64,000 nt of DNA, taken from a virus (lineage: Duplodnaviria > Caudoviricetes). Of this stretch, positions 32,428 to 63,929 are shown in pieces. Below the pieces are notes generated by a model. The model worked only from the letters and a program-made list of their open reading frames with translations, searched no databases and had not been told where the DNA came from. The translations under genes were made by a program, and so were the position numbers. Each line of letters opens with the position of its first letter. The stretch's first letter is position 1. The stretch lies in the IMG/VR virus record IMGVR_UViG_3300037504_000149, one strand, 5' to 3'.

Positions 32428-32687
32428 CAACACAAAAAAATTGTGTTACTTTTAGAGCGATGGAACTTGCTGATTCTCGGAGGGTTATGCACGATGCAAA
32501 AGCTAAACTTTTACAAGCGCAAGTGCTTACTGGGATTTCGTTATGCTATGAGATGTTAGAAGTCATTGAAAAGGTTTCTCCTATAGAAGTTAGAGAACAG
32601 TTAGCTAATCGTCTCGAAGGTTTACTAACGACCAGTTGTAATTGTATCGAGATGTGCGATGAGCTAACTGATGGGGAGTTGAGCTAA
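32424..32687 (+). CDS. hypothetical protein
   Basis: Short ORF; start uncertain. Confidence 0.45.
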   Translation: MTTQKNCVTFRAMELADSRRVMHDAKAKLLQAQVLTGISLCYEMLEVIEKVSPIEVREQLANRLEGLLTTSCNCIEMCDELTDGELS

Positions 32688-39606: not shown

Positions 39607-39771
39607 ATGAGTAAGAATCCTAAAGAAAATCCACCCTTAGATCCAAAGATAAAACTACCAAAACCCAAAAAGTTTAAAACATTAGTGGGTAGGCTCTTTT
39701 TCCCGCCTCTAGCACCAGATGAAGATATAGCATTTACCGAAGGCCCATCAATAGCGATATGGAATAAGTGA
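39607..39771 (+). CDS. 54-aa Pro/Lys-rich protein (below the ORF track cutoff)
   Basis: AGGAGG RBS; MSKNPKENPPLDPK...WNK. Confidence 0.6.
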   Translation: MSKNPKENPPLDPKIKLPKPKKFKTLVGRLFFPPLAPDEDIAFTEGPSIAIWNK

Positions 39772-39789
39772 TAAAATTAAGGAGTTGCC

Positions 39790-40713
39790 ATGAGTAAACT
39801 AACGATCCGCTTCCACGAATTAGCCTGTCCAGTACGTGGTGTAGTCGAAGACCAGGATCAGGATGTATTTTCAAAACACAGAAACATTTGGAGTATCGAG
39901 ATTCCAATGTGGAAGTCTGGTAGAATACCAGTTTACCAATCACCAGAAGAACCAGAGACGTTCATAGCTAACAGATGGCTAACTCCCCGTGAATTCTTAA
40001 CCTATTTAGTTGATAGATTACAAACCGATGAAGTGCTATTAGACAATCCCTACATTGATTTTGGGGAACAAGAAATAAGGTTGGTTTATAAATTGATAAC
40101 TGATTCCCCTACAGTTATAGAACGTCTAAATAAGGCAGTTGTAGAGGGGGACGGCAACTCCTATGTTATTATAAAACAACGCCCCTACAATAGAATACAA
40201 TGGTGTTATGAGCACGTAGTAGAAACACCAGAAGACCTAGTCTATGTTCCACCAAGACCGGCTGAGTATGACGATGTGCGGGAGGAAATGTCATTTACAT
40301 TCAAGAAATCAACAACAAACGTGAGGTGTACCACGGACTGTGTCACATATGAACGTTGCCATGCTATTAAAGGCTCAGAAGGATACTACCAAGGCTTACC
40401 TTTTTACATAACTTTCGATTCTAACTCGCGTAAATATGACGAGGAGTTAGGGGTAGAAAAAGTAGACTTTGCACTTACTGCAAGATACTCAGATAACGAT
40501 GAGCCCATTAAACAAATTAAAGGATATTCCTACTACAAACCTGATGATGCAGACGTTACCGTAATGTTTAGACAACCCCTACTAGGTCAGTATAGCAAGA
40601 GAATAGAAAGCTGCTTCGATGGTTGGAAACCCCAAGAAGTTAAGGTGTTGGGAGATGCTATTATTAATGCCTACAAAAACTCTATTGTATCATGTATATA
40701 CAAGCGCAATTAA
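39790..40713 (+). CDS. paralog family C (C-terminal domain)
   Basis: AAGGAG RBS; DFA.T.R.S....P..QIKGY shared with 40765. Confidence 0.65.
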   Translation: MSKLTIRFHELACPVRGVVEDQDQDVFSKHRNIWSIEIPMWKSGRIPVYQSPEEPETFIANRWLTPREFLTYLVDRLQTDEVLLDNPYIDFGEQEIRLVYKLITDSPTVIERLNKAVVEGDGNSYVIIKQRPYNRIQWCYEHVVETPEDLVYVPPRPAEYDDVREEMSFTFKKSTTNVRCTTDCVTYERCHAIKGSEGYYQGLPFYITFDSNSRKYDEELGVEKVDFALTARYSDNDEPIKQIKGYSYYKPDDADVTVMFRQPLLGQYSKRIESCFDGWKPQEVKVLGDAIINAYKNSIVSCIYKRN

Positions 40714-40717
40714 CTGC

Positions 40718-40755
40718 CAAGGATTCCTTGACAGTTGATAACCCTAGTAAAGGAG
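40718..40755 (+). repeat. 38-bp palindrome+RBS element, copy 1 (copy 2 at 41263-41300)
   Basis: CAAGGATTCCTTGACAGTTGATAACCCTAGTAAAGGAG is identical at both sites. Confidence 0.9.
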
Positions 40756-40764
40756 GCTCTAACA

Positions 40765-41229
40765 ATGGGTTTTAAAACATATGAACACTCTAAAAATATT
40801 ACCAAAATCTCAGGAGTATATTATAAAGGTATAACAATGTACATAACCTTGGATTATGACGACCCATCCTTATATAAGGAGGAGGAACATGGTGGTCACT
40901 TAGATTTTGCAATTACTGTGAGGGATTCTACTAATGGTGTTCCTCTTGCACAAATCAAAGGATATGCACACTGTGGTCCTGATACTACAGAGCCTGACAT
41001 ACAATTTATACATCCTCTGGAAGGCTACGTCTGTGAGACAATAGAAGACTGCTTATTCAGGAGGGGTGAAACATACAAAGACTATAAATTGCTGGTAGAG
41101 GAAGCAGTAGATAAGGTAGTGGGGGATGAAGAAGTAGATAAGGTGCTGTGGGGCTTTATGTTTAATGTCTTCGAAAGGGATATGGTAGATGCCTTAGTTC
41201 CGGAAGGATGGTATACTAAGATTAAATAA
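40765..41229 (+). CDS. paralog family C, copy 2
   Basis: Start moved to MGFKTY after AGGAGG. Confidence 0.65.
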   Translation: MGFKTYEHSKNITKISGVYYKGITMYITLDYDDPSLYKEEEHGGHLDFAITVRDSTNGVPLAQIKGYAHCGPDTTEPDIQFIHPLEGYVCETIEDCLFRRGETYKDYKLLVEEAVDKVVGDEEVDKVLWGFMFNVFERDMVDALVPEGWYTKIK

Positions 41230-41305
41230 GAGAATAGTGTATACGAAGCAAAAAGCAGATGTCAAGGATTCCTTGACAGTTGATAACCCTAGTAAAGGAG
41301 CAATC

Positions 41306-41824
41306 ATGGGAGAATTACACTGGCCTGGTGAACGCTGTGACAGATGCAAGAATCGCATTGTCGTTGGTTTCGATATTACTGATGGAGACTGGGACGCAGT
41401 AACACGACACACTAACTATGACATACTTTGTTTAGCCTGCTTCGACGAACTTGCCCAAATAAGGGGAGTACACTATGAGATGAAAACAACTGATTTACAA
41501 CCGCCCCTCACTTGGCATGATTGGAATCTCCCCGGAGTAAACAATGAGGTTGTCGAGCTACCCAGTGAACTGAGAAGTATAACTAGAAAAACGCTAGGTA
41601 ATGATTATCCACGACCCCACGATAAATGTGGACCGTGGAGTGTTAACGAGAAAGGATATCTGTGCTATAATTATAATCCGGTATTGTTTGGAGGCCAAGA
41701 ACAACTCTTTGTATGTGCATATCTAGTCACCGCACTTTATGACTCTGGAAAAACACAAGAGGCTGAGTTTGTACATCGATGGGGTACAGCACGATTGTCA
41801 CGTTGTTACTGGAAGTATAGCTAA
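41306..41824 (+). CDS. hypothetical protein with CxxC pairs
   Basis: Start moved to MGELHW; CDRC, CLAC. Confidence 0.65.
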   Translation: MGELHWPGERCDRCKNRIVVGFDITDGDWDAVTRHTNYDILCLACFDELAQIRGVHYEMKTTDLQPPLTWHDWNLPGVNNEVVELPSELRSITRKTLGNDYPRPHDKCGPWSVNEKGYLCYNYNPVLFGGQEQLFVCAYLVTALYDSGKTQEAEFVHRWGTARLSRCYWKYS

Positions 41825-41860
41825 GGAATCCTTGATAAATAAAATCCCAAGGAGGTAGAT

Positions 41861-42109
41861 ATGTGGTGGTTGACTATTGTTATTTCGGTAGTAGTGGTAG
41901 GAGTTTGGTGTATGTTGTATGCCTACCATAATAAAACTTCTCCAGAGGAACGCTTGGAAAAGATAAAAACAAAAGAGCTGCGTCGTTGCAGGAGATTACA
42001 GAGAAAGTATCTTAGGGAGATCGACGGGAGCTGGGGCAGCTCCGGGATGAAAGTGTTTAATTTTTACGATAGTCTTGAGGAGTGGTTGAAAAACCCCGAG
42101 GAAGAATAA
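41861..42109 (+). CDS. small membrane-anchored protein
   Basis: AAGGAGG RBS; N-terminal TM helix. Confidence 0.65.
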   Translation: MWWLTIVISVVVVGVWCMLYAYHNKTSPEERLEKIKTKELRRCRRLQRKYLREIDGSWGSSGMKVFNFYDSLEEWLKNPEEE

Positions 42110-42453
42110 TGGAACGCAAGCAAGCTTATGAGCTTATCCAGAAACATGCCTTACGCGCTCATCGAGGTGAAGTTAACTTTCGTGAAGCTATTTTAAATGA
42201 CCCCGAAATAACCAAGCGTCTATCACGAGCTACGATTCTAAAATGCTTTGAGCTGAAACCAAAATACCTAGATTATATTTACAAACGAGTTGAGAGAGCA
42301 ACACGTAAATATGGTGTGTTTGTAAGAGGATGTTCAACACCTTACTTAGGAGGGAGATATAGGAGTGGAAAATCGTTAGGATGTAATAGGAGAGGAGAGT
42401 ATAGTGGAGGGAAGCAAATGAGAAGAAGACTAAGGAAGGAGGTAACAAGATGA
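42109..42453 (+). CDS. stand-alone adenylosuccinate lyase (PurB) C-terminal domain-like protein
   Basis: R..AY.LIQK.A..A......FRE.IL.DP.IT..LS...I..CF.....LDYIYKRV matches the PurB C-terminus. Confidence 0.7.
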   Translation: MERKQAYELIQKHALRAHRGEVNFREAILNDPEITKRLSRATILKCFELKPKYLDYIYKRVERATRKYGVFVRGCSTPYLGGRYRSGKSLGCNRRGEYSGGKQMRRRLRKEVTR

Positions 42454-42548
42454 GTCTTTGGATGGCGATTAAACCTATAGTGCTGGTTATTGTTGGCATC
42501 TGCCTAGGGAGTGCTTTGTATTACTTTACAATAGGTAGAAGGAAGTAG
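42450..42548 (+). CDS. 32-aa single-TM peptide (below the track cutoff)
   Basis: AAGGAGG RBS; MSLWMAIKPIVLVIVGICLGSALYYFTIGRRK. Confidence 0.6.
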   Translation: MSLWMAIKPIVLVIVGICLGSALYYFTIGRRK

Positions 42549-42631
42549 AGAGGGAGAGGATAACAGTAGGAACGCAATAGAATATTACCTTCAGGAGATC
42601 CTACCTTACACCAGATCTAAGGAGATAAAGA

Positions 42632-42994
42632 ATGAAGATTCCACAGTATTACAACAAAGATAAAAAGATTCTCGCTATCATCATGACGGAGAAAGTTCTA
42701 AAAAACGTAACGTCTCGTATGATACTTGGTTGTATTGCTGATGCTTGTATATTTCGGGGGTTAGAAGTGGACTGCCTAGAAATATGCTTTCCAATGCTTG
42801 AGGATAAACCCCAACCTGTACCTTGGCAGACTACCCCTTTGATGCTTCAGGATGTTGTAGCTCTTCTGACTCGTCATCTTAATCGTGTTCCGGGAGGGGT
42901 GGTGGTAAGGTTTATAGATAACCATCACATACTAGAAATAACTGAACGGTGGATTCACCTAGACGAAGAGGAAGATAAAGAAGTAGATGAATAA
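42632..42994 (+). CDS. hypothetical protein
   Basis: AAGGAG RBS. Confidence 0.6.
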   Translation: MKIPQYYNKDKKILAIIMTEKVLKNVTSRMILGCIADACIFRGLEVDCLEICFPMLEDKPQPVPWQTTPLMLQDVVALLTRHLNRVPGGVVVRFIDNHHILEITERWIHLDEEEDKEVDE

Positions 42995-43316
42995 TGAGGT
43001 ACTACCTTACGAAATTACATTAAACACAGAGGAAGGTAATGACTACTTAGCTAGTTTCCTAGACGAGCCTCTACAACCAGGAACGGAAGTTAGTATCCTC
43101 TTTGAGTTTGATACAGGGCGGTGTTCCTTTGACTTCTTTAATGGTACAAGCTCACCAGAAGGTTGGGATGATGATTGGGAAGGAGCACTCGATTGGTTAT
43201 CTAAGAATGGTTATGAGGATGAGGTGGCAGAAATAAATCGCCTAGCAGAAGAGTGGAATACTTTTAGTTATCAAAAGGAGAACTATGAAGGTAACAGTGA
43301 CAACCGAGCACGGTGA
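42987..43316 (+). CDS. acidic hypothetical protein
   Basis: Strongly D/E-rich. Confidence 0.6.
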   Translation: MNNEVLPYEITLNTEEGNDYLASFLDEPLQPGTEVSILFEFDTGRCSFDFFNGTSSPEGWDDDWEGALDWLSKNGYEDEVAEINRLAEEWNTFSYQKENYEGNSDNRAR

Positions 43317-43530
43317 GATGAGTGGACAGGATGCCGTAGATCAATTGCGTCGTGATGTTGTGGAGGCTCGTGAGGATTGGCGAGAAGCTGCACAGAGAGC
43401 GATAGACAAGCCTACGGATGAGGACTTCAGGTGCTGGGATACTGACCGTGAGGCGCATAGACTTTATGAGAGGTATAAAACTTGCTTACTCCAGTTCTGT
43501 GACGTTGAGCGGGCAGTAGGAGAAGAGTGA
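43285..43530 (+). CDS. hypothetical protein
   Basis: AAGGAG RBS. Confidence 0.6.
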   Translation: MKVTVTTEHGEMSGQDAVDQLRRDVVEAREDWREAAQRAIDKPTDEDFRCWDTDREAHRLYERYKTCLLQFCDVERAVGEE

Positions 43531-43566
43531 CTGGGAACCCTAAAGAGGAGGTAGGTATGAGGAGGG

Positions 43567-43884
43567 ATGGTTATAATGACAGATGAACTCTTAGATATGA
43601 TAGATGTGGTAAATGCTTACCGTCCTTGGACTATGGAATATATAGTTGAGGAGGGGTATATCCCAGGGTCCGAACCTACTTGTGTGTTAACTGTAGAGAA
43701 TGGTGAAAGAATTTACAAGCCAGCAAAAGGAGAATGTTCTATAGATTATGGAGAGCTTGTGTATATGGAATGCTTCCAGTCTAAAAAAGAAGCAATAGAT
43801 AGGCGCAAAGAACTAGAAAATAAATACAAGTTACGCTGGGCACATATCTATCGCACAGAGGCAGAATACGAGAATGGGAGATAA
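43567..43884 (+). CDS. hypothetical protein
   Basis: GGAGG RBS; last gene before the non-coding region. Confidence 0.6.
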   Translation: MVIMTDELLDMIDVVNAYRPWTMEYIVEEGYIPGSEPTCVLTVENGERIYKPAKGECSIDYGELVYMECFQSKKEAIDRRKELENKYKLRWAHIYRTEAEYENGR

Positions 43885-45731: not shown

Positions 45732-46070
45732 CATGTTATGAGGGGGAGTGTAGGGGGAAGGGAGCGGGAGACGTTGAATAGTTACAATATGAATGGGGGA
45801 GTAGAGGGGAGCGGGAGATGTTGAGAGGATGTTGAATAGTTAGAATATGAATAGGGAGGAAGAAGGGGGGGTGATTATTCATATTAAGATCATTCTGAGA
45901 TTTTGCAGGGTATTTATATTATTGATATACCGTACAATCCCCCAATATACGCGCACAAAATTTTGCAACCCCCAATTTTAATTATTCATAATAATTATAT
46001 TCTACCCCCCCCCTGCTCCTTCCCCTGCTCCCGTATTCCTCGCGCTATTATAATTCTACATACCTACCAT

Positions 46071-46209
46071 AAAAGAGTTTAACATAAAACTTCCCTGAAG
46101 TCAATACCTATTTTATTCCATTTTATCCTTGACAAGTTTTCAATCCATATGGTATACTGCCTTCAGAAGATAAAAACGCCCCGGAGGGGGCATAACCTGG
46201 AAGGGAACG
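46071..46209 (+). repeat. cassette module R0 (no terminator)
   Basis: AGTCAA 46099-46104, TTGACA 46129-46134, TATACT 46153, leader hairpin, RBS. Confidence 0.9.
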
Positions 46210-46410
46210 ATGGATAAGGAAAACTTTGATGTATTTTATGCGGCGGCGCAAGCTGTAGCAACACTTAAATCAGCTCGTGCCATTGCCTGTGTCGTTGACG
46301 CTGCTGTCCGTACAAAAGAAACACGGACAGCGCTGAATAAAATCTGTGATGCGCTGAAAACGATGGAATCGGTGCGAAACAGTAACCTAGAAACAATATA
46401 TTCTCGCTAA
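46210..46410 (+). CDS. cassette cargo, 66-aa helical protein
   Basis: Lies between R0 and R1. Confidence 0.8.
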   Translation: MDKENFDVFYAAAQAVATLKSARAIACVVDAAVRTKETRTALNKICDALKTMESVRNSNLETIYSR

Positions 46411-46422
46411 ACATACTACACC

Positions 46423-46655
46423 GCCCCGCTGGAATCCAGCGGGGCTTTTCTTTATCCTGGATATTCGATTATTCTTATATCCTATTTTATATATTCCCCT
46501 TAGTCTTCCCCTTCAAACATAATGCTAACATAAAACTTACCTGAAGTCAATACCTATTTTATTCAATTTTATCCTTGACAATCTAGGAACTAGTATGATA
46601 TAATAGCTTTACAAGATTAGAAACGCCCGCAAGGCGGGCATAACAGGGAGGATAT
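46423..46655 (+). repeat. cassette module R1
   Basis: Terminator GCCCCGCTGG-AAT-CCAGCGGGGC-TTTT, spacer, AGTCAA 46545, TTGACA 46575, leader, RBS. Confidence 0.95.
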
Positions 46656-46838
46656 ATGGAACGGACAACCTATATTGTTATCGGCGGCCAGCAGGTCGGC
46701 ATCACTGGCAACCCCAACGATGACCCGCTGTCCGCCCCGGCGGCCAAGGCGGCGCTGAAGGACTATCGCGCCCGCACCGGCCGGACCGCTGTCCCTATCC
46801 GGCTGGCCAATGGGACGGTATTCTCACGGGGATTCTAG
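46656..46838 (+). CDS. cassette cargo, 60-aa protein
   Basis: GGGAGG RBS; GC-rich. Confidence 0.8.
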   Translation: MERTTYIVIGGQQVGITGNPNDDPLSAPAAKAALKDYRARTGRTAVPIRLANGTVFSRGF

Positions 46839-46846
46839 GTTATTAC

Positions 46847-47076
46847 GCCCCGCTGGAATCCAGCGGGGCTTTTCTATACCTTGTATATTCGATTATTCTT
46901 ATATCCTAATATATTCCCCTTAGTCTCCCCCTTCAAACATAATGCTAACATAAAACTTCCCTGAAGTCAAGACCTATTTTATTCCATTTTATACTTGACA
47001 ATCTAGGAATCCATATGGTATACTACTTTCAGAAGATGAAAACGCCCCGGAGGGGCAAAACTAGGGAGGGGAAAGA
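46847..47076 (+). repeat. cassette module R2
   Basis: Near-identical to R1; AGTCAA 46965, TTGACA 46995. Confidence 0.95.
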
Positions 47077-47328
47077 ATGGAGTATTTATTGCGTCTGACC
47101 CGCGCCCGATATAATGATATACCGATAGATAACATCGGGCAAGCTACGCGAATAAAGGTCAAGAGTATACAAGCCGCTAAGATAGCGGCAACAAGATGGG
47201 CGGAGCAAGTGGCAACACCAAACAAGCCCTATTGTGTCGTTATCTACACAATCGAGGGTACACCTATAATAAGAAAACACAGCTTTACTAAGAAATGGGC
47301 GAAAGCGGGAGAATTCTACTGTACCTAG
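47077..47328 (+). CDS. cassette cargo, 83-aa basic protein
   Basis: GGGAGG RBS. Confidence 0.8.
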   Translation: MEYLLRLTRARYNDIPIDNIGQATRIKVKSIQAAKIAATRWAEQVATPNKPYCVVIYTIEGTPIIRKHSFTKKWAKAGEFYCT

Positions 47329-47334
47329 CATTTA

Positions 47335-47563
47335 CCCCCGCTGGATTCCAGCGGGGCTTTTCTTTATCCTGGATATTCGATTATTCTTATATCCTAATAT
47401 ATTCCCCTTACTCTCCCCTTCAAACATAATGCTAACATAAAACTTCCCTGAAGTCAAGACCTATTTTATTCCATTTTATACTTGACACTCTAGGAACTAG
47501 TATGGTATACTACCTTCAGAAGATGAAAAGCCCGCATAGCGGGCATAACAGGAAGGGAAACGG
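47335..47563 (+). repeat. cassette module R3
   Basis: AGTCAA 47452, TTGACA 47482. Confidence 0.95.
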
Positions 47564-47896
47564 ATGATTTACGAAGTTATTACTCGCGATGAACTCTATC
47601 ACCGTCTGAAGGGGTATAACGACGTATTCTCGTATGAGGGGGCTCGGATAATATACGATTATATTACCGAACTCGGCGATACGGAGCTAGACGTTCCCGA
47701 CATTCACGGCGGGTTTACGGAGTATTCCGATGCTGAGGAAGCGGCAGAGGACATTCTCCCCCCTGATGAGGTCGAGGAAATGCGGAAAGAATTCGCGGAA
47801 TTCCCCGGCCTTGATGATGAATGCTGGAAGGCGCTGGAGCGGGCCGGTGAAACAGTGCTGGGCTCGGCGTCCGGGCCTGTCATTATCGCGGAATAG
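47564..47896 (+). CDS. cassette cargo, 110-aa strongly acidic protein
   Basis: D/E-rich; single gene between R3 and R4. Confidence 0.8.
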   Translation: MIYEVITRDELYHRLKGYNDVFSYEGARIIYDYITELGDTELDVPDIHGGFTEYSDAEEAAEDILPPDEVEEMRKEFAEFPGLDDECWKALERAGETVLGSASGPVIIAE

Positions 47897-47903
47897 TTTT
47901 ATC

Positions 47904-48130
47904 GCCCCGCTGGTATTCCAGCGGGGCTTTTCTATACCTTGTATATTCGATTATTCTTATATATATTCCCCTTACACTTCCCCTTCAAACATAATGCTAA
48001 CATAAAAGTTCCCTGAAGTCAATACCTATTTTATTTAATTTTACACTTGACAATCATTTAATCCGTATGATATAATACCTTTACAAGATTGAAACGCCCC
48101 TACAGGGGCATAACAGGAAAGGGAAGGAAT
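47904..48130 (+). repeat. cassette module R4
   Basis: AGTCAA 48017, TTGACA 48047. Confidence 0.95.
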
Positions 48131-48568
48131 ATGATTTACACCAATCTTGATGAAGCACGCGCCGCGAAGGCGGCGAGCGTAGCAAAGGCGCGAGAGCTGG
48201 AGTCCCGCGCTATCGAAGGTGAGGGGCCTACTTCCACCGAAGCCGAAGAAGTCAGGCATGAACGGTGGATCAAGGAAAACACCCTGGTTGTTACCAGGCA
48301 CGCAGGCCTGGTCGACTACATCAAAGAAGAGTTCATTTATCCCGCGTACCTGGCATCAGACGTGGTATTCTCTCACGTTGAGCAAAAGGACGTGGAGGGG
48401 AAGCACGTGGTTGGCATTTTGCCGCTCCACCTGGCCGCATTGGCAGATAAGGTGACGGTCATCCCCCTGAACCTGACCCCGGCGGATCGAGGTCAGGAAC
48501 TTTCCGCCGAACGGGTGCGGGAAGTGGCCGGTGACCCGGTAACCTACCGGGTCGAGCAGGTGAATTAG
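48131..48568 (+). CDS. Csx16-like protein (putative cyclic-oligoadenylate ring nuclease)
   Basis: VTRHAG...VVGILPLHLAA...L.LTPADRGQELSAE matches the recalled Csx16 pattern SRHPG...IGTLP.HLAA...RG.ELS. Start moved to 48131. Confidence 0.75.
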   Translation: MIYTNLDEARAAKAASVAKARELESRAIEGEGPTSTEAEEVRHERWIKENTLVVTRHAGLVDYIKEEFIYPAYLASDVVFSHVEQKDVEGKHVVGILPLHLAALADKVTVIPLNLTPADRGQELSAERVREVAGDPVTYRVEQVN

Positions 48569-48576
48569 CTCTCACT

Positions 48577-48707
48577 GCCCCGCTGGATTCCAGCGGGGCT
48601 TTTCTATACCTTGTATATTCGATTATTCTTATATCCTATTATATATATATATTACCCTAGTCTCCCCCTTCAAACATAATGCTAACATAAAACTTCCCTG
48701 AAGTCAA
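48577..48707 (+). repeat. cassette module R5 (terminator and reverse promoter only)
   Basis: Similarity ends just after AGTCAA 48702-48707. Confidence 0.9.
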
Positions 48708-48903
48708 GAACTATTTTAATGTATCTAAAACAAGGCAGCACAAGGGTATATTTTAGTCGCCCGTAGAAGTGATATAACGGGCCGTAGATGGCCGTAAAGG
48801 GTGGCAGAGTGGTATAGTATACTTATCTATTGAACGGCCTTAAAATCGCCCTACGGGCATTATATGGAATATCAGGAAAGTTTAATATAGATAAAGTTTT
48901 CTC

Positions 48904-49136
48904 TTGACAGGGAGCAAAGGTTATGATATACTTCCCCCGTAAGATTGAGAAATAGATACCTGAAACGCCCCCCAGAGGGGGCATAAAGGAAAGGGGAATA
49001 AATGAAGGGTTGACAGCGATGGGGAAGTATGATATACTTCCCCCGTAAGATTGAAGATGTAGTAAACGCCCCTACGGGGCACAAAGGAAAGGGGCTAAAA
49101 TTAGGGGTTGACAAGGGTGGGGAAGTATGATATAAT
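48904..49136 (+). promoter_or_regulatory. three tandem promoters, the first two with leader hairpin and RBS but no gene
   Basis: TTGACA-17-TATACT at 48904 and 49010; TTGACA-17-TATAAT at 49108; ~100-bp period. Confidence 0.85.
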
Positions 49137-49145
49137 CCCCTTGAT

Positions 49146-49389
49146 GAGCGTTACCTATAACACAGTATCATTTATTCACTAGAGTTAACAAGGGAGGGAG
49201 GCGCAGGATGAAACACTATCAGCGTAACATCCTGCTGGAACCCGGTTAAATCATCGGGGCGGAAAGTAAGTCGGCCCCGCCCCGGCTTTCCCGGGCCTTA
49301 ACATGGGATACACCGTAGACCTATTGTGATCAACGGTAAATCCGTTGTGACGCTCCCCCGGTCCCTAAACTATGGGGACCGGGGATTTT
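49146..49389 (+). ncRNA. candidate structured ncRNA A with its own terminator
   Basis: End pairing GAGCGTTAC/GTGACGCTC, four internal hairpins, terminator stem 49356-49384. Only a 13-aa ORF inside. Confidence 0.6.
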
Positions 49390-49430
49390 AGTATAGTTAG
49401 TTTATATTATAAGACTGCCGGACTGCCCAC

Positions 49431-49569
49431 AAAAGAGTTTAACATAAAAGTTACCTGAAGTCAATACCTATTTTATTTAATTTTACGCTTGACATTCTAG
49501 GAACTAGTATGATATAATAGCTTTACAAGATTAAAACGCCCCGGAACGGGGCATAACAGGGAGGGAACG
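49431..49569 (+). repeat. cassette module R6 (no terminator, same 5' end as R0)
   Basis: AAAAGAGTTTAACATAAAA..., AGTCAA 49459, TTGACA 49489. Confidence 0.9.
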
Positions 49570-49782
49570 GTGTTTCACTTAAAATTCTACGACGGGACGA
49601 CCGGGAGTGCCGGTTGTTACGGGAGTTTTGATACGCTCGCCGACGCTATGGCTGAGTGTGATACCGTCCCCGGTTGCTCCGGGGAGTCAGGGTATGAGTC
49701 ATCCTCGTTGTATATCGAGGATGACACAGGAGAAGTTGTCGCATCCCTAGGCGCATATTGCGCCGGTTGGGTTGTGGGCTAG
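49570..49782 (+). CDS. cassette cargo, 70-aa acidic protein
   Basis: GGGAGG RBS, GTG start. Confidence 0.75.
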   Translation: MFHLKFYDGTTGSAGCYGSFDTLADAMAECDTVPGCSGESGYESSSLYIEDDTGEVVASLGAYCAGWVVG

Positions 49783-49789
49783 ATTTACG

Positions 49790-49962
49790 GCCCCGCTGAT
49801 ATTCTCAGCGGGGCTTTTCTTTTACCTTGTATATTCGATTATTCTTATATATATCCCCTTACTCTCCCCCTTCAAACATAATGATAACATAAAACTTTCC
49901 TGAAGTCAACCCCTAAATTTCCCTATTAAATCCTTGACATCTATCTGCTGTTTTGATACAAT
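49790..49962 (+). repeat. cassette module R7 (variant; drives an RNA, no leader or RBS)
   Basis: Terminator with compensatory TGA/TCA change; AGTCAA 49904; TTGACA 49934-17-TACAAT. Confidence 0.9.
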
Positions 49963-49969
49963 ACTCGTC

Positions 49970-50102
49970 GAGGTGGCAGCCGCAGTAGGCGCAGGGAAGT
50001 TGAGACCCCTAGACGTAGGACTCCGGTCCCTGTATCCCCGCCGATCACGGGGTGCATGCGGGTGTCGGGATTGTCCGGGCAATCCCCAATCCCGCCCACC
50101 TT
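49970..50102 (+). ncRNA. candidate structured ncRNA B occupying a cassette slot
   Basis: GAGGTGG/CCACCTT closing stem with four internal stems; lies between promoter and terminator; no RBS or ATG-started ORF of meaningful length. Confidence 0.7.
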
Positions 50103-50113
50103 ACATGAAACGG

Positions 50114-50348
50114 CCCCCGCTGGATTCCAGCGGGGCTTTTCTTTTACCTTGTATATTCGATTATTCTTATATCCTAATATATTCCCCTTAGTCTCCCCCT
50201 TCAAACATAATGCTAACATAAAAGTTACCTGAAGTCAATACCTATTTTATTCAATTTTATACTTGACAAGCTATAAACTAGTATGATATACTATCCCCAC
50301 AAGATTAGAAACGCCCCCGGAGGGGGCATAACAAAGGAAGGGGAAGAA
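50114..50348 (+). repeat. cassette module R8
   Basis: AGTCAA 50233, TTGACA 50263. Confidence 0.95.
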
Positions 50349-50861
50349 ATGGGCTGGGATGGTAGGTATATGGATAACACTGTGAAAGCCCGTCAACGAG
50401 TGATGATGGAGACTGTCGGACTGATAGACTTGTCGGTCCGGGGCAATGAAGGGTACGCTGCAGTGAAACATCCCGATATGGAGGCCGTGTTTTGTATGAT
50501 CTTCATTTTCCGGTATTCTGAAGGGGAATTGTGTACAAAGACCTGTACGGAGCTTGACGGCCCGTTTTGTTGGAATTGCCCGCAACGTATTATGAAACAG
50601 CTCACTGCGCCGCTGAACGAGCGGGCGGCGGATTGGCGCGATGCTTGTCGGCTCGCTGCGAAGTTGCGCAAAGCGCGTTATGTTTATCTGGAGCGGTCGC
50701 CGCATGGCACTGACATACGCTTAGTGGAAAAGGTGGCGAATGCTCGGAGTGTTTACCGTGAGATGTATACCGGTGAACTATGGCGGCTGCGCGTTAACAC
50801 TATGATGCACTACGGCGCTCGTCCAGTGGATAAGGACGAAGCCGAGGCGATGTTACGTTAG
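50349..50861 (+). CDS. DUF6927-like protein
   Basis: MGW...YAAV...E.DGP...NCP.RIM..LT.....A.DWR..C. Start moved to 50349. Confidence 0.65.
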   Translation: MGWDGRYMDNTVKARQRVMMETVGLIDLSVRGNEGYAAVKHPDMEAVFCMIFIFRYSEGELCTKTCTELDGPFCWNCPQRIMKQLTAPLNERAADWRDACRLAAKLRKARYVYLERSPHGTDIRLVEKVANARSVYREMYTGELWRLRVNTMMHYGARPVDKDEAEAMLR

Positions 50862-50868
50862 ATTTACC

Positions 50869-51088
50869 GCCCCGCTGGAATCCAGCGGGGCTTTTCTTTA
50901 TCCTTTATATTCAATTATTCTTATATATATATTCCCCTTAGTCTTCCCCTTCAAACATAATGCTAACATAAAACTTCCCTGAAGTCAATACCTATTTTAT
51001 CCAATTTTACACTTGACAAGCTATAAACTAGTATGATATAATAGCTTTACAAGATTGATAGCAGTTAACATTAAAAGGGGAGGGCTCC
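50869..51088 (+). repeat. cassette module R9
   Basis: AGTCAA 50983, TTGACA 51013. Confidence 0.9.
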
Positions 51089-51958
51089 ATGCGTGTTGAT
51101 AAGAAAAAGGAAAAGGTACTCACACACTTAGAGGATATTTTATCGGCGCTGAAGAATGACCCGGCGGCGCTGAAGCGCTTGTCGTGGATTAAACCGTGGA
51201 GTAACCCACCCCGTAACTTGGCCGGGCGTCAATATAACGGTGGTAATGTACATATTCTGAACTTTGCCTCCGTCGTTAGTAGTTATAAGCATAATAGGTG
51301 GGGAACGTTCAATCAATATAAGAAGTATGGGGCCAGCATTATTAAGGGCTCCAGTGCGACGCCTATCTATTACTATAATGTAAAGAAATACACTAAAGAA
51401 GATGAGAATGGAGAGGAAAAGGAATATACTTATTATGTGTTTAAGTATTTTAATCTTTTCAATATCGCACAAACGACATTGGAGATTGAGCGGCTCCCCG
51501 GCGTCGAGTATAAAGAAGTAGAATATACCACACCGGAACGAATCCGGAGGGGATATTGTGACAATGGCGGCCCGGAGTATCAGGAATCCGGTGACCGTGC
51601 CTTTTATCGGCCCGGAGGGGATTTAGTCTGCTTGCCGCCCCGCGAAACATTCCATTCATCAGCGGAGTATGCCAGTACGCTATATCATGAACTGGTGCAT
51701 AGCACCGGGCATGAAAAGCGGCTGGACCGGGGATTTAGCTTGTCTCGGGGCGGGGAAGGGTACGCCCTAGAGGAACTGGTCGCAGAGACTGGAGCGCTAA
51801 TCCTTTGTGACCGGAGCGGTATTAACCCGGACGTGAATAACTTCAAGGCGTATATTGCTAGCTGGCTTCAGGCGGTAAAATCTGACCAGCGTTACAAAAC
51901 TTTCTCCGCATTGTCACAAGCGGAGAAGGCCGTTGACTACATTCTAGGGGAAAGGTAG
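51089..51958 (+). CDS. ardC: ArdC-family antirestriction protein (ssDNA-binding domain plus zincin-like domain)
   Basis: WIKPW, Y.G.N, WGTFNQ, FNIAQT, AFY.P..D.V.LP, HELVHSTGHEKRLDR, YALEELVAE, YIASWL. Confidence 0.92.
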   Translation: MRVDKKKEKVLTHLEDILSALKNDPAALKRLSWIKPWSNPPRNLAGRQYNGGNVHILNFASVVSSYKHNRWGTFNQYKKYGASIIKGSSATPIYYYNVKKYTKEDENGEEKEYTYYVFKYFNLFNIAQTTLEIERLPGVEYKEVEYTTPERIRRGYCDNGGPEYQESGDRAFYRPGGDLVCLPPRETFHSSAEYASTLYHELVHSTGHEKRLDRGFSLSRGGEGYALEELVAETGALILCDRSGINPDVNNFKAYIASWLQAVKSDQRYKTFSALSQAEKAVDYILGER

Positions 51959-51996
51959 ACTTTCCCCTTGACATTATAGAGCATTTTATGGTACTA
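51947..51996 (+). promoter_or_regulatory. palindrome fused to a promoter (type-2 module, copy 1)
   Basis: GGGGAAAG-GTAGA-CTTTCCCC immediately followed by TTGACA 51968-17-TACTAT. Confidence 0.75.
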
Positions 51997-52039
51997 TTGC
52001 CTTAGAAGATTGAAAAACAAAACAAGGGAAGGGGAAAAC

Positions 52040-52612
52040 ATGGCCACGGGAAACTTTCACTATCATACGAATTTGTGTTATGCTTTGCCTGATGACGGTC
52101 CAAACGTATTAGAAGATGCGTTAGATCGTATAAAGGTCGAAGCGGCCCGTATGGGGTTGACGCTGGAAAAGTACCTAGCACCGGAAAAATTCGATACAAA
52201 ATCATACGGTCGGCACTATTATACTCACCTTGCTGAGTATAGTGTAGAACAGCCGTATTATGGCGGGTTCATTACTGTTTCTGCTGGTATTGGCGTCCGT
52301 GCTGGATACTATACTGGTGGATGCTATGACTGCTGCATTATTGCAGAGTTTTACGGCAGTAAGATAGCTGATAGTCACTACGATGACTCCTATACGGATG
52401 TAGATGAGATTGAGGAACTTTTGCTAGAATGTAGCGATGTACCAAAGGGTTTTATTCAGCACGCTGCAATTAAGGTGCGGGATAAAGCCGATGAACTGAT
52501 TGATGAGGTAGAAGATACGACAAACCGCTTACTCGCTGCCGCTGCTGAAGTGAAACTGGCTTGTCTAGGCTCGGCCAGTAACGGCGAGACGTTTTATCGG
52601 AAGGTGGATTAG
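52040..52612 (+). CDS. hypothetical protein
   Basis: Start moved to MATGNF after AGGGAAGGGG. Confidence 0.75.
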   Translation: MATGNFHYHTNLCYALPDDGPNVLEDALDRIKVEAARMGLTLEKYLAPEKFDTKSYGRHYYTHLAEYSVEQPYYGGFITVSAGIGVRAGYYTGGCYDCCIIAEFYGSKIADSHYDDSYTDVDEIEELLLECSDVPKGFIQHAAIKVRDKADELIDEVEDTTNRLLAAAAEVKLACLGSASNGETFYRKVD

Positions 52613-52620
52613 GTTAGATA

Positions 52621-52723
52621 GGGGAAAGCATATGCTTTCCCCTTGACTTTCACGTTGTCTTATGGTACAGTTGTCTTAGAAGATTAAACAACGCCCCGTC
52701 GGGGCATAACTGGGAGGGAAAAG
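52621..52723 (+). promoter_or_regulatory. type-2 module, copy 2
   Basis: 22-bp perfect palindrome GGGGAAAGCATATGCTTTCCCC, TTGACT, leader GCCCC-GTC-GGGGC-ATAAC, RBS. Confidence 0.8.
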
Positions 52724-53353
52724 ATGAAACTGTACAAGCGTAACGGCAAGATGTACCTTGCCGTCGAAGGACAAGAGATTGAGATAGCCGACATTCGAGA
52801 CGCTGTTAAGGCGCTCGGCGGTACGGTCGAAACGTCAACCTATCGCAAAGTCGAGCTGTTTCATGATTACGATTGTCCTAATCCGCTGGAGGGTGATTCG
52901 GAAGTTTTCATCTATCATAAGCGGAATCGAGAGTTTGAAGTCGGTCAAGATATTGAAGCGGCTGGCGGCTTCGAGGGCGTCCGAGAAGCGCATCCCGATG
53001 CTGTTATCGCGCCCCTGTACGCATACGTGCATTCTGGCGTGTGCTTCAGTACCAAGTACACCTATCCTTTCACTTGTCAATGGGATGCTGGATTGACGGG
53101 TTGCATCGTCGGTCCGAGTAAAGAAGCGATTCTTGGCGCTATCGAGGAATTGAATCATTATGTAGCAGGGAACTGCTACGGATATGAGGTGCAAGATGAA
53201 TGGGGTGAGGTGCTGGATTGTTGTGGCGGTTTCTGGGGATATATCGACGACGAACTTTTGAAGGAATATGCGATGGCGCATTGCCCCGACCCGGAGAACA
53301 TGGACGTTGTTTTTAGCGACCCCTTCGGCCGAGAAGAGAAGGTTGAGTGGTAG
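52724..53353 (+). CDS. acidic hypothetical protein
   Basis: GGGAGG RBS. Confidence 0.75.
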   Translation: MKLYKRNGKMYLAVEGQEIEIADIRDAVKALGGTVETSTYRKVELFHDYDCPNPLEGDSEVFIYHKRNREFEVGQDIEAAGGFEGVREAHPDAVIAPLYAYVHSGVCFSTKYTYPFTCQWDAGLTGCIVGPSKEAILGAIEELNHYVAGNCYGYEVQDEWGEVLDCCGGFWGYIDDELLKEYAMAHCPDPENMDVVFSDPFGREEKVEW

Positions 53354-53361
53354 GTAGGATA

Positions 53362-53412
53362 GGGGAAAGCATATGCTTTCCCCTTGACTTTACCGTTATC
53401 TTGTGGTATACT
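53362..53412 (+). promoter_or_regulatory. type-2 module, copy 3
   Basis: Same 22-bp palindrome, then TTGACT-17-TATACT. Confidence 0.8.
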
Positions 53413-63544: not shown

Positions 63545-63929
63545 GGGGCTGATAAGGGTTCGACGTGCGAGTAAAAGTGAGGTAGCATCCCGTGGTTGGT
63601 CTCTAGGCCACGTAAAAAAGAGACCAAACAACAACAGCCGAAAATGCTGTTCCCTTGGCTGCTTAAAAAGCCGCTCCTCTATGGAGCTAGGCTCGTAGCC
63701 CGCCCCCGGAAAGGTTTCTCTGCACCTGACTGGATAAGGCGTCAAAAAGCAGGGGTCCGACTTGGAGTTACCTAATCGCTCCTAAAAGGACTACAGAGTA
63801 ATTAGGTAGGGTGCGCGAGACTGTGCCGTATCAGCCGGACCGCACCGACACGACATGATACGGCTATGGATGTAGATGCCGAAGCGGCACTTGACACGGA
63901 CGCGGGTTCGATTCCCGCCAGCTCCACCA
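63545..63929 (+). ncRNA. ssrA: tmRNA, tag AENAVPLAA
   Basis: Acceptor stem GGGGCTG/CAGCTCC with G3:U, ACCA end, T-arm GCGGGTTCGATTCCCGC, pseudoknot pk1, tag frame 63637-63666 ending LAA-stop. Confidence 0.97.

Follow-up and report, generated by a model that had tools for sequence, protein, structure and literature searches.

The hyperplastic regions of T4-type phages contain PeSL cassettes, in which an early sigma-70-like promoter and a terminator stem-loop flank a small orphan cargo (Arbiol et al. 2010, PMC2839356; Comeau et al. 2014, PMC4122927). The first of these papers says nothing of RNA cargo; the terms "RNA gene" and "small RNA" have no occurrences in PMC2839356. Another group of small phage elements is formed by the RNA anti-CRISPRs (Racrs), which are solitary mimics of CRISPR repeats (Camara-Wilpert et al. 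2023, PMC10651486). The unit described here, RNA B (49108–49389), is a self-contained promoter-to-terminator cassette located in a PeSL-like array of an uncultured phage with a genome of approximately 230 kb. All positions refer to the window, i.e., the whole stretch of 64,000 nucleotides that was analysed. We tentatively read RNA B as an early RNA that is non-coding and whose vestigial RBS is occluded, although our confidence in this reading is somewhat below even.

The window, whose genes are on the plus strand and whose GC content is 38.5%, is part of a 229,864-bp contig. The phage encodes class II RNR, both subunits of topoisomerase II, and SbcCD, along with a tmRNA and a tRNA-Trp. Of the eight larger phage proteins tested, seven have no PHROG family. 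The tmRNA (63545–63929) is full-length, scores 137.9 bits, possesses its own consensus-like promoter, and carries the tag (A)ENAVPLAA, which is encoded by no contig of the GTDB representative genomes under any choice of codons. The array occupies approximately 46.0–51.1 kb and consists of eight repeats of a module of about 230 bp, with one small cargo between successive modules. The module combines a terminator hairpin and a conserved block with two promoters, one reverse and one consensus forward, as well as a leader hairpin and an RBS. The GC content of the array cargo (46000–53400) is 44–65%, compared with 35.5% in the phage core (1–44000), which suggests that the cargo is foreign and was acquired from higher-GC sources. 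High GC content as a mark of an RNA was rejected, since all of the array cargo falls within this range.

Two cargo-less cassette heads directly precede the RNA B unit on the plus strand. The first one (48904–49009), which belongs to repeat family D9, comprises a promoter with the TTGACA-17-TATACT boxes (48904–48932), a leader hairpin at about 48967–48982, and an RBS; it ends with ATG-AAG-GGT-TGA (49002–49013), running into the next -35 box. The second head (49010–49107) also contains a promoter (49010–49038), a leader hairpin, and an RBS; its start codon has been lost (ATT), and it adjoins the promoter of the RNA B unit, promoter 3. Farther upstream, the module at 48573–48900 is devoid of a forward promoter. 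It is followed by approximately 170 nt with several short GGCC/GCCC hairpins and no ORF, after which the first empty head begins; this ORF-less stretch may likewise be debris of recombination, or else a further small unit.

Promoter 3 (49108–49136, plus strand) has the TTGACA-17-TATAAT boxes with a TG of the extended -10 type and matches the consensus at 12 of the 12 positions. It is homologous to the promoters at 48904 and 49010, which lie 204 and 98 bp upstream of it, the successive spacings being 106 and 98 bp. Thus, with the two cargo-less heads upstream, three tandem consensus promoters feed the RNA B unit. Transcription from promoter 3 is predicted to start at about 49143 (plus strand), and the promoter and terminator signals together predict a primary transcript, RNA B, of about 247 nt (49143–49389, plus strand). 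Promoters 2 and 1 would give nested forms of RNA B with predicted lengths of about 345 and 450 nt, respectively. In the region, 38 promoter-like sites were seen, compared with 11.5 expected; the promoter and terminator of the RNA B unit exceed chance.

The intrinsic terminator (49356–49389, plus strand; stem-loop 49356–49384) has a 12-bp stem with nine G-C pairs and a 5-nt loop and is followed by ATTTT. It is unique and differs from the module terminator of the seven neighbouring cassettes (CCCCGCTGG...CCAGCGGGG), which is absent from the RNA B unit. The gap between the stop codon and the terminator also differs, being 107 nt in the RNA B unit and 7–13 nt in the seven protein cassettes. The 3' flank (49390–49439, no strand assigned) is unique and AT-rich and stands in for the first half of the standard module, which restarts at about 49440 with a copy of repeat family D2 (49440–49551). 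The foreign terminator and the restart of the module only at 49440 suggest that a non-coding piece, terminator included, was brought in as the cargo. The preliminary description of this DNA had proposed an RNA cargo with a consensus promoter and a terminator of its own; both signals are confirmed, and the notion of a discrete unit is supported by them. On the minus strand, a module reverse promoter-like site with the TTGACT-17-TAAACT boxes (49436–49464) would read antisense through RNA B if active, and no minus-strand terminator was found within 49140–49430. With TAAACT, its -10 box is of a weaker type, and every module contains this reverse promoter. The cassette that follows carries a separate consensus promoter at 49489.

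The RNA B unit carries a mini-ORF of 13 codons together with about 190 bases of RNA rich in hairpins. At its very start, the transcript recalls the module's GATGA box and also the ArdC-cassette leader, which lacks a hairpin. The cassette RBS signature, TAACA followed by GGGAGG(GAGG), is located at 49186–49201 (plus strand) and is partly paired with 49285–49299 in the MFE structure. The purine tract GGGAGGGAGG (49192–49201) ends 6 nt before ATG 49208. In the 64 kb, TAACA followed by GGGAGG within 8 nt occurs five times, compared with 0.3 expected, and four of the five occurrences, that at 49186–49201 included, are at cassette RBS positions. The strong SD noted previously is present 6 nt before the ATG, but it proves to be the RBS signature of the array itself. 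In its syntax the unit thus resembles a protein cassette and not a dedicated RNA slot.

The mini-ORF (49208–49249, plus strand) consists of 13 codons, encodes the peptide MKHYQRNILLEPG, and ends with the TAA stop codon at 49247–49249. The peptide is polar, contains no hydrophobic stretch, signal, or recognisable motif, and is too short to search. Apart from Leu-Leu, no residue is repeated in it, and no regulatory codon run can be noted. As had been described, the ATG lies within a stem: the AUG is inside the 8-bp hairpin 49203–49210/49228–49235 and has an unpaired probability of 0.00. Predicted folding gave the SD an unpaired probability of 0.25, and the values for the AUG and the SD are the lowest among the ten cassette RBSs compared. 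Codons 2–7 (49211–49228) encode Lys-His-Tyr-Gln-Arg-Asn, a series that was spotted post hoc. The tRNAs for these residues are targets of anticodon nucleases. Given that these codons lie in and beside the A-rich hairpin loop, the pattern may be a coincidence.

Behind the RBS, no frame remains open past 13 codons, and there are three to five stops per frame. All three frames are stopped within the last 55 nt before the terminator, so the cargo does not represent a gene's 3' end either. The GC content by codon position is flat in RNA B (0.56/0.51/0.56), whereas real cargo genes have values of 0.68/0.38/0.67 and 0.52/0.39/0.53. No Pfam or PHROG match to the six-frame pieces of RNA B was found. When the ATG frame was read through its three stops and compared with 1.84 billion proteins, only four matches were obtained. 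In the matches that were examined, scores had been summed on a short stretch repeated within long multi-repeat proteins; for instance, the P0024 match is made of four copies of a 26-residue stretch, and the protein contains four copies of a domain of about 120 residues. The best single stretch in this search scored at most 33.5 bits, and about 1000 such stretches are estimated to occur in the library by chance. A decayed protein gene was rejected as the origin of the cargo, since no six-frame piece resembles a Pfam or PHROG family and the ATG frame yielded only the four matches described above among the 1.84 billion proteins.

The predicted fold of RNA B is closed by a helix between GAGCGTTAC (49146–49154) and GTGACGCTC (49347–49355), with 9 bp including one G-U pair and a mean pair probability of 0.94. 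The 3' arm of this helix directly abuts the terminator. The start-codon hairpin pairs GCAGGATG (49203–49210) with CATCCTGC (49228–49235) in 8 bp with a probability of 0.99. It is followed by a G/C hairpin, in which CGGGGCGG (49255–49262) and CCGCCCCG (49277–49284) form an 8-bp stem with a 14-nt loop (probability 0.95), and by a small hairpin AACGG/CCGTT (49332–49336/49342–49346; probability 0.70). An anti-SD pyrimidine tract, GC-TTCCC...CCTT (49285–49299), pairs with the SD tract in helices with probabilities of 0.53–0.76; all of these elements are on the plus strand. All features named in the preliminary description occur where it places them, one hairpin arm being shifted by one base. The end-to-end pairing was found at the same positions, the CGGGGC/GCCCCG hairpin is best drawn as 49255–49262/49277–49284, and the CAACGG/CCGTTG hairpin as the small hairpin given above. 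The start-codon hairpin is also present, but its 3' arm is one base to the left of a naive count. The CCCGG/CCGGG hairpin exists in the sequence but is missing from both the MFE and centroid structures; its tract pairs with the SD region instead.

Three pyrimidine tracts of RNA B could mask the SD. In nascent RNA that still lacks the terminator 3' arm, the predicted partner of the SD tract (49191–49198) is the terminator 5' arm (49356–49366), with probabilities up to 0.98; once the 3' arm exists, the terminator is predicted to beat this pairing by 22.8 kcal/mol. Towards the remainder of the window, RNA B shows no more complementarity than chance would give, and its antisense matches do not exceed 11 nt.

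The statistics of the fold were compared with those of shuffled sequences and of other windows. The MFE z-score is -4.6 with the terminator and -2.7 to -3.0 for the body without it, and none of the 200 shuffles is as stable as the body. As for the array background, 8 of the 51 local windows of 213 nt reach z-scores of -3 or lower, and the ArdC coding control has an MFE z-score of -2.9. The ensemble diversity of RNA B (43.6) is equal to that of the shuffles (45.0 ± 13.8; z -0.1), and no single fold is predicted to dominate. A closing helix of at least 9 bp arises in 20 of the 400 shuffles (5%). The comparison with shuffles, which had been set beforehand as the test of the fold, thus gave a nominally positive result: the body beats its 200 shuffles, but the coding control equals it, and the diversity is that of shuffled sequence. 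The fold of RNA B goes beyond chance only weakly; these statistics fail to discriminate, and the fold is not exceptional. In this array, neither the stability of a fold, nor the pairing of its ends, nor the strength of its promoter tells a selected RNA apart from a recombination remnant.

Searches for known RNA families gave no candidates at the locus. With Rfam 15 at gathering thresholds, only the tmRNA and the tRNA pass in the window. When the locus alone was compared with Rfam at E ≤ 10, the best hits had E values of 2–6 and scores of 11–15 bits, and all of them were on the minus strand or on the terminator. ARAGORN found no tRNA-like structure in RNA B, and its only predictions in the window were the tRNA-Trp at 32673 and the tmRNA at 63545. 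The statement that RNA B belongs to no known RNA family is therefore supported. Its interpretation as a novel ncRNA is supported in part: an ORF-less unit of its own and the lack of an Rfam family at the locus speak for it, while the protein-cassette RBS and the unexceptional fold speak against it.

A blastn search with the locus and its surroundings against phage and plasmid records revealed no homologue. Exact patterns of RNA B had no match in IMG/VR, JGI metagenome, and GTDB genome contigs, and the module patterns had no homologue in viral or metagenome contigs; one 21-mer module match proved to be unrelated. The exact products of the flanking ORFs are not on record. The same phage, 100% identical, is present in a Logan contig that is broken at the module repeats. 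A related phage was found in the Logan runs SRR25621648 and SRR25621649 by means of the protein encoded at 39790–40713. Its 3.7-kb contigs, with 73–84% nucleotide identity, span only 39652–43857 of the window and do not cover the array. Some segments of this phage, the sole relative found, are in a different order compared with the window. A 32-mer conserved between the window and the relative had no match in viral contigs, protein-anchored searches revealed no further relative, and the clade of the related phage is absent from IMG/VR. The Csx16-like protein has homologues with up to 60% identity; the contigs fetched through them are a conjugative plasmid and phage contigs with a GC content of 53–65%. 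They are unrelated elements that contain neither the modules nor RNA B.

Two neighbouring slots of the array are also of interest with respect to RNA cargo. RNA A, an ORF-less slot at 49969–50105, has an ensemble diversity of 7.2 compared with 29.8 in shuffles, of which 1% are as low, and the Rfam search with it gave only terminator look-alikes. As this neighbouring slot is both ORF-less and well folded, the array does carry RNA cargo. The second slot is the cassette 49525–49820 with a "70-residue ORF" (GTG, 49570–49782), the body of which has an MFE z-score of -4.3 and a diversity of 15.8 compared with 51.8 in shuffles (0 of 120 shuffles as low). Its GC content by codon position is flat (0.55/0.52/0.59), and no homologue of its product, not even the product itself, was found in a collection of 5.8 billion proteins. 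The cassette does have the standard leader hairpin and RBS. The "70-residue ORF" may correspond to a structured RNA and not to a protein, and both it and RNA A are better RNA candidates than RNA B.

The head of the unit is of the array's own making, with a consensus promoter, a GATGA box close behind the transcription start, and the RBS signature TAACA-GGGAGG. According to the explanation that we tentatively prefer, the cargo, i.e., the 13-codon ORF and about 105 nt of G/C-rich, hairpin-rich sequence, would have been imported with its own terminator. Host RNA polymerase would produce RNA B in quantity early in infection from the three tandem promoters, and the product of about 247 nt would act, if at all, as RNA. 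With the AUG in an 8-bp hairpin, the SD paired downstream, and the ends paired beside the terminator, RNA B is expected to be stable and poorly translated. The sequence itself demonstrates the signals, the absence of a longer ORF and of a known family, and the cassette syntax; we infer the transcription of RNA B, its stability, its lack of translation, and any function. The most likely role would be that of a decoy or sponge for a host factor, and it is proposed on account of the anti-defence-type neighbours, the Csx16-like protein and ArdC. A bolder version, in which RNA B represents a new class of anti-defence RNA, an abundant early structured decoy that is produced from the three promoters within minutes of infection and binds and neutralises a host immune or RNA-binding protein, seems to us unlikely. 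In a still more speculative variant, the mini-ORF could sense tRNA-cleaving defence through its translation. If functional, RNA B would be a further instance in which swappable early-gene cassettes of phages carry RNA as well as protein cargo, and it would be a candidate RNA-based counter-defence factor.

Several observations count against reading RNA B as a functional RNA. It has an array-type RBS and an ATG at good spacing, as in a protein or peptide cassette. It is located amid recombination debris, next to two empty heads and a module without a forward promoter, and there is neither a homologue among the collections searched nor a sign of selection. The most serious alternative, which we regard as possible, is that the unit is a transcribed recombination scar. 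PeSL-type recombination would have deleted or truncated the cargo, and the RBS head would have been fused to a stray non-coding fragment bearing a terminator; the RNA would be made but have no function, and its hairpins would stem from the G/C-run composition and not from selection. In T4-type phages, PeSL recombination makes such indels (PMC2839356, PMC4122927), which fits the empty heads beside the RNA B unit. The two cargo-less heads directly upstream and the module 48573–48900 without a forward promoter are consistent with this origin, as is an array-type RBS with an ATG that is followed by 13 codons only. The fold, no better defined than that of shuffles and no more stable than the coding control, the closure of the ends in 5% of shuffles, and the fact that the RNA B homologue was found in no collection searched point in the same direction. 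On the other hand, no remnant of a coding sequence can be detected in six frames, the fragment has a perfect 12-bp terminator and ends that pair with each other, the MFE of its body beats all 200 shuffles, and the neighbouring slot contains a convincing RNA, RNA A. Given that the locus lies in recombination debris and that selection on the fold is not demonstrated, a scar is nearly as likely as a functional RNA.

The unit could also be a micro-peptide cassette whose cargo is MKHYQRNILLEPG, with the downstream 105 nt serving as a stabilising 3' UTR. The array RBS signature, with GGAGG 6 nt from the ATG, and the three promoters feeding the unit would suit such a cassette; however, the AUG is predicted to be fully paired and the SD to be the most occluded of the ten cassette RBSs, the gap between the stop codon and the terminator does not exceed 13 nt in any other cassette, and the peptide has no signal, hydrophobic stretch, or known motif, so we consider this explanation improbable. 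Similarly improbable is a cis-acting or antisense device, either a translation-coupled attenuator or insulator before the next cassette or one half of a sense/antisense pair with a transcript from 49464–49436: the short ORF, hairpins, and intrinsic terminator do resemble leader-peptide attenuators, the nascent SD tract is predicted to pair with the terminator 5' arm (up to 0.98), and the reverse promoter-like site faces the unit with no intervening minus-strand terminator, but the terminator wins by 22.8 kcal/mol, the next cassette is served by its own consensus promoter at 49489, the mini-ORF contains no regulatory codon run, and the reverse promoter has a weak -10 box (TAAACT) and is common to every module.

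Returning to RNA B as a non-coding early RNA, its likeness to known systems is partial in each case. In phage T7, three tandem early promoters, A1, A2, and A3, drive a multi-gene early operon. The RNA B unit likewise has three strong host-polymerase promoters approximately 100 bp apart; however, they feed one ORF-less unit of about 250 nt that is closed by a terminator, and two of the three belong to cassette heads whose duplication is visible. Type I toxin mRNAs such as hok contain a small ORF, an SD occluded by a downstream anti-SD, and an inhibitory fold-back of the 5' end on the 3' end. For RNA B, thermodynamic folding predicts an SD occlusion and an end pairing of this kind, and a comparable closure appears in 5% of shuffles; an antisense promoter-like site is located near RNA B as well. 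The ORF of a hok-like toxin is hydrophobic and has about 20–60 residues, whereas the ORF of RNA B has 13 codons and is not hydrophobic, and there is neither an overlapping frame nor a defined antisense RNA gene.

Leader-peptide attenuators, such as trpL, place an SD and a short ORF (about 14 codons) ahead of several hairpins and an intrinsic terminator. RNA B has its SD, short ORF, hairpins, and intrinsic terminator in the same order, but it differs in having no regulatory codon run, no competitive antiterminator, and a gap of 107 nt between the stop codon and the terminator; moreover, the gene downstream of RNA B has its own promoter. Like Racrs, RNA B appears to be small, non-coding, and driven by a promoter, and it lies in a phage region that contains anti-defence-type proteins. 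It differs from them in its length of about 210 nt, its several helices, and its lack of a repeat unit.

The array itself resembles PeSL cassettes, as it contains repeated composite elements and a strong early promoter directly upstream of the RNA B cargo. The phage described here is not T4-like, and the PeSL design is found in an unrelated phage. Its module, at about 230 bp, is longer than that of PeSL cassettes and has extra parts, namely a promoter in reverse orientation, an RBS, and a leader hairpin. The RNA B slot itself departs from membership in two features, as it contains neither the array terminator nor a small-ORF cargo. Placed beside these systems, RNA B is an orphan promoter-to-terminator small-RNA unit in a phage cassette array.
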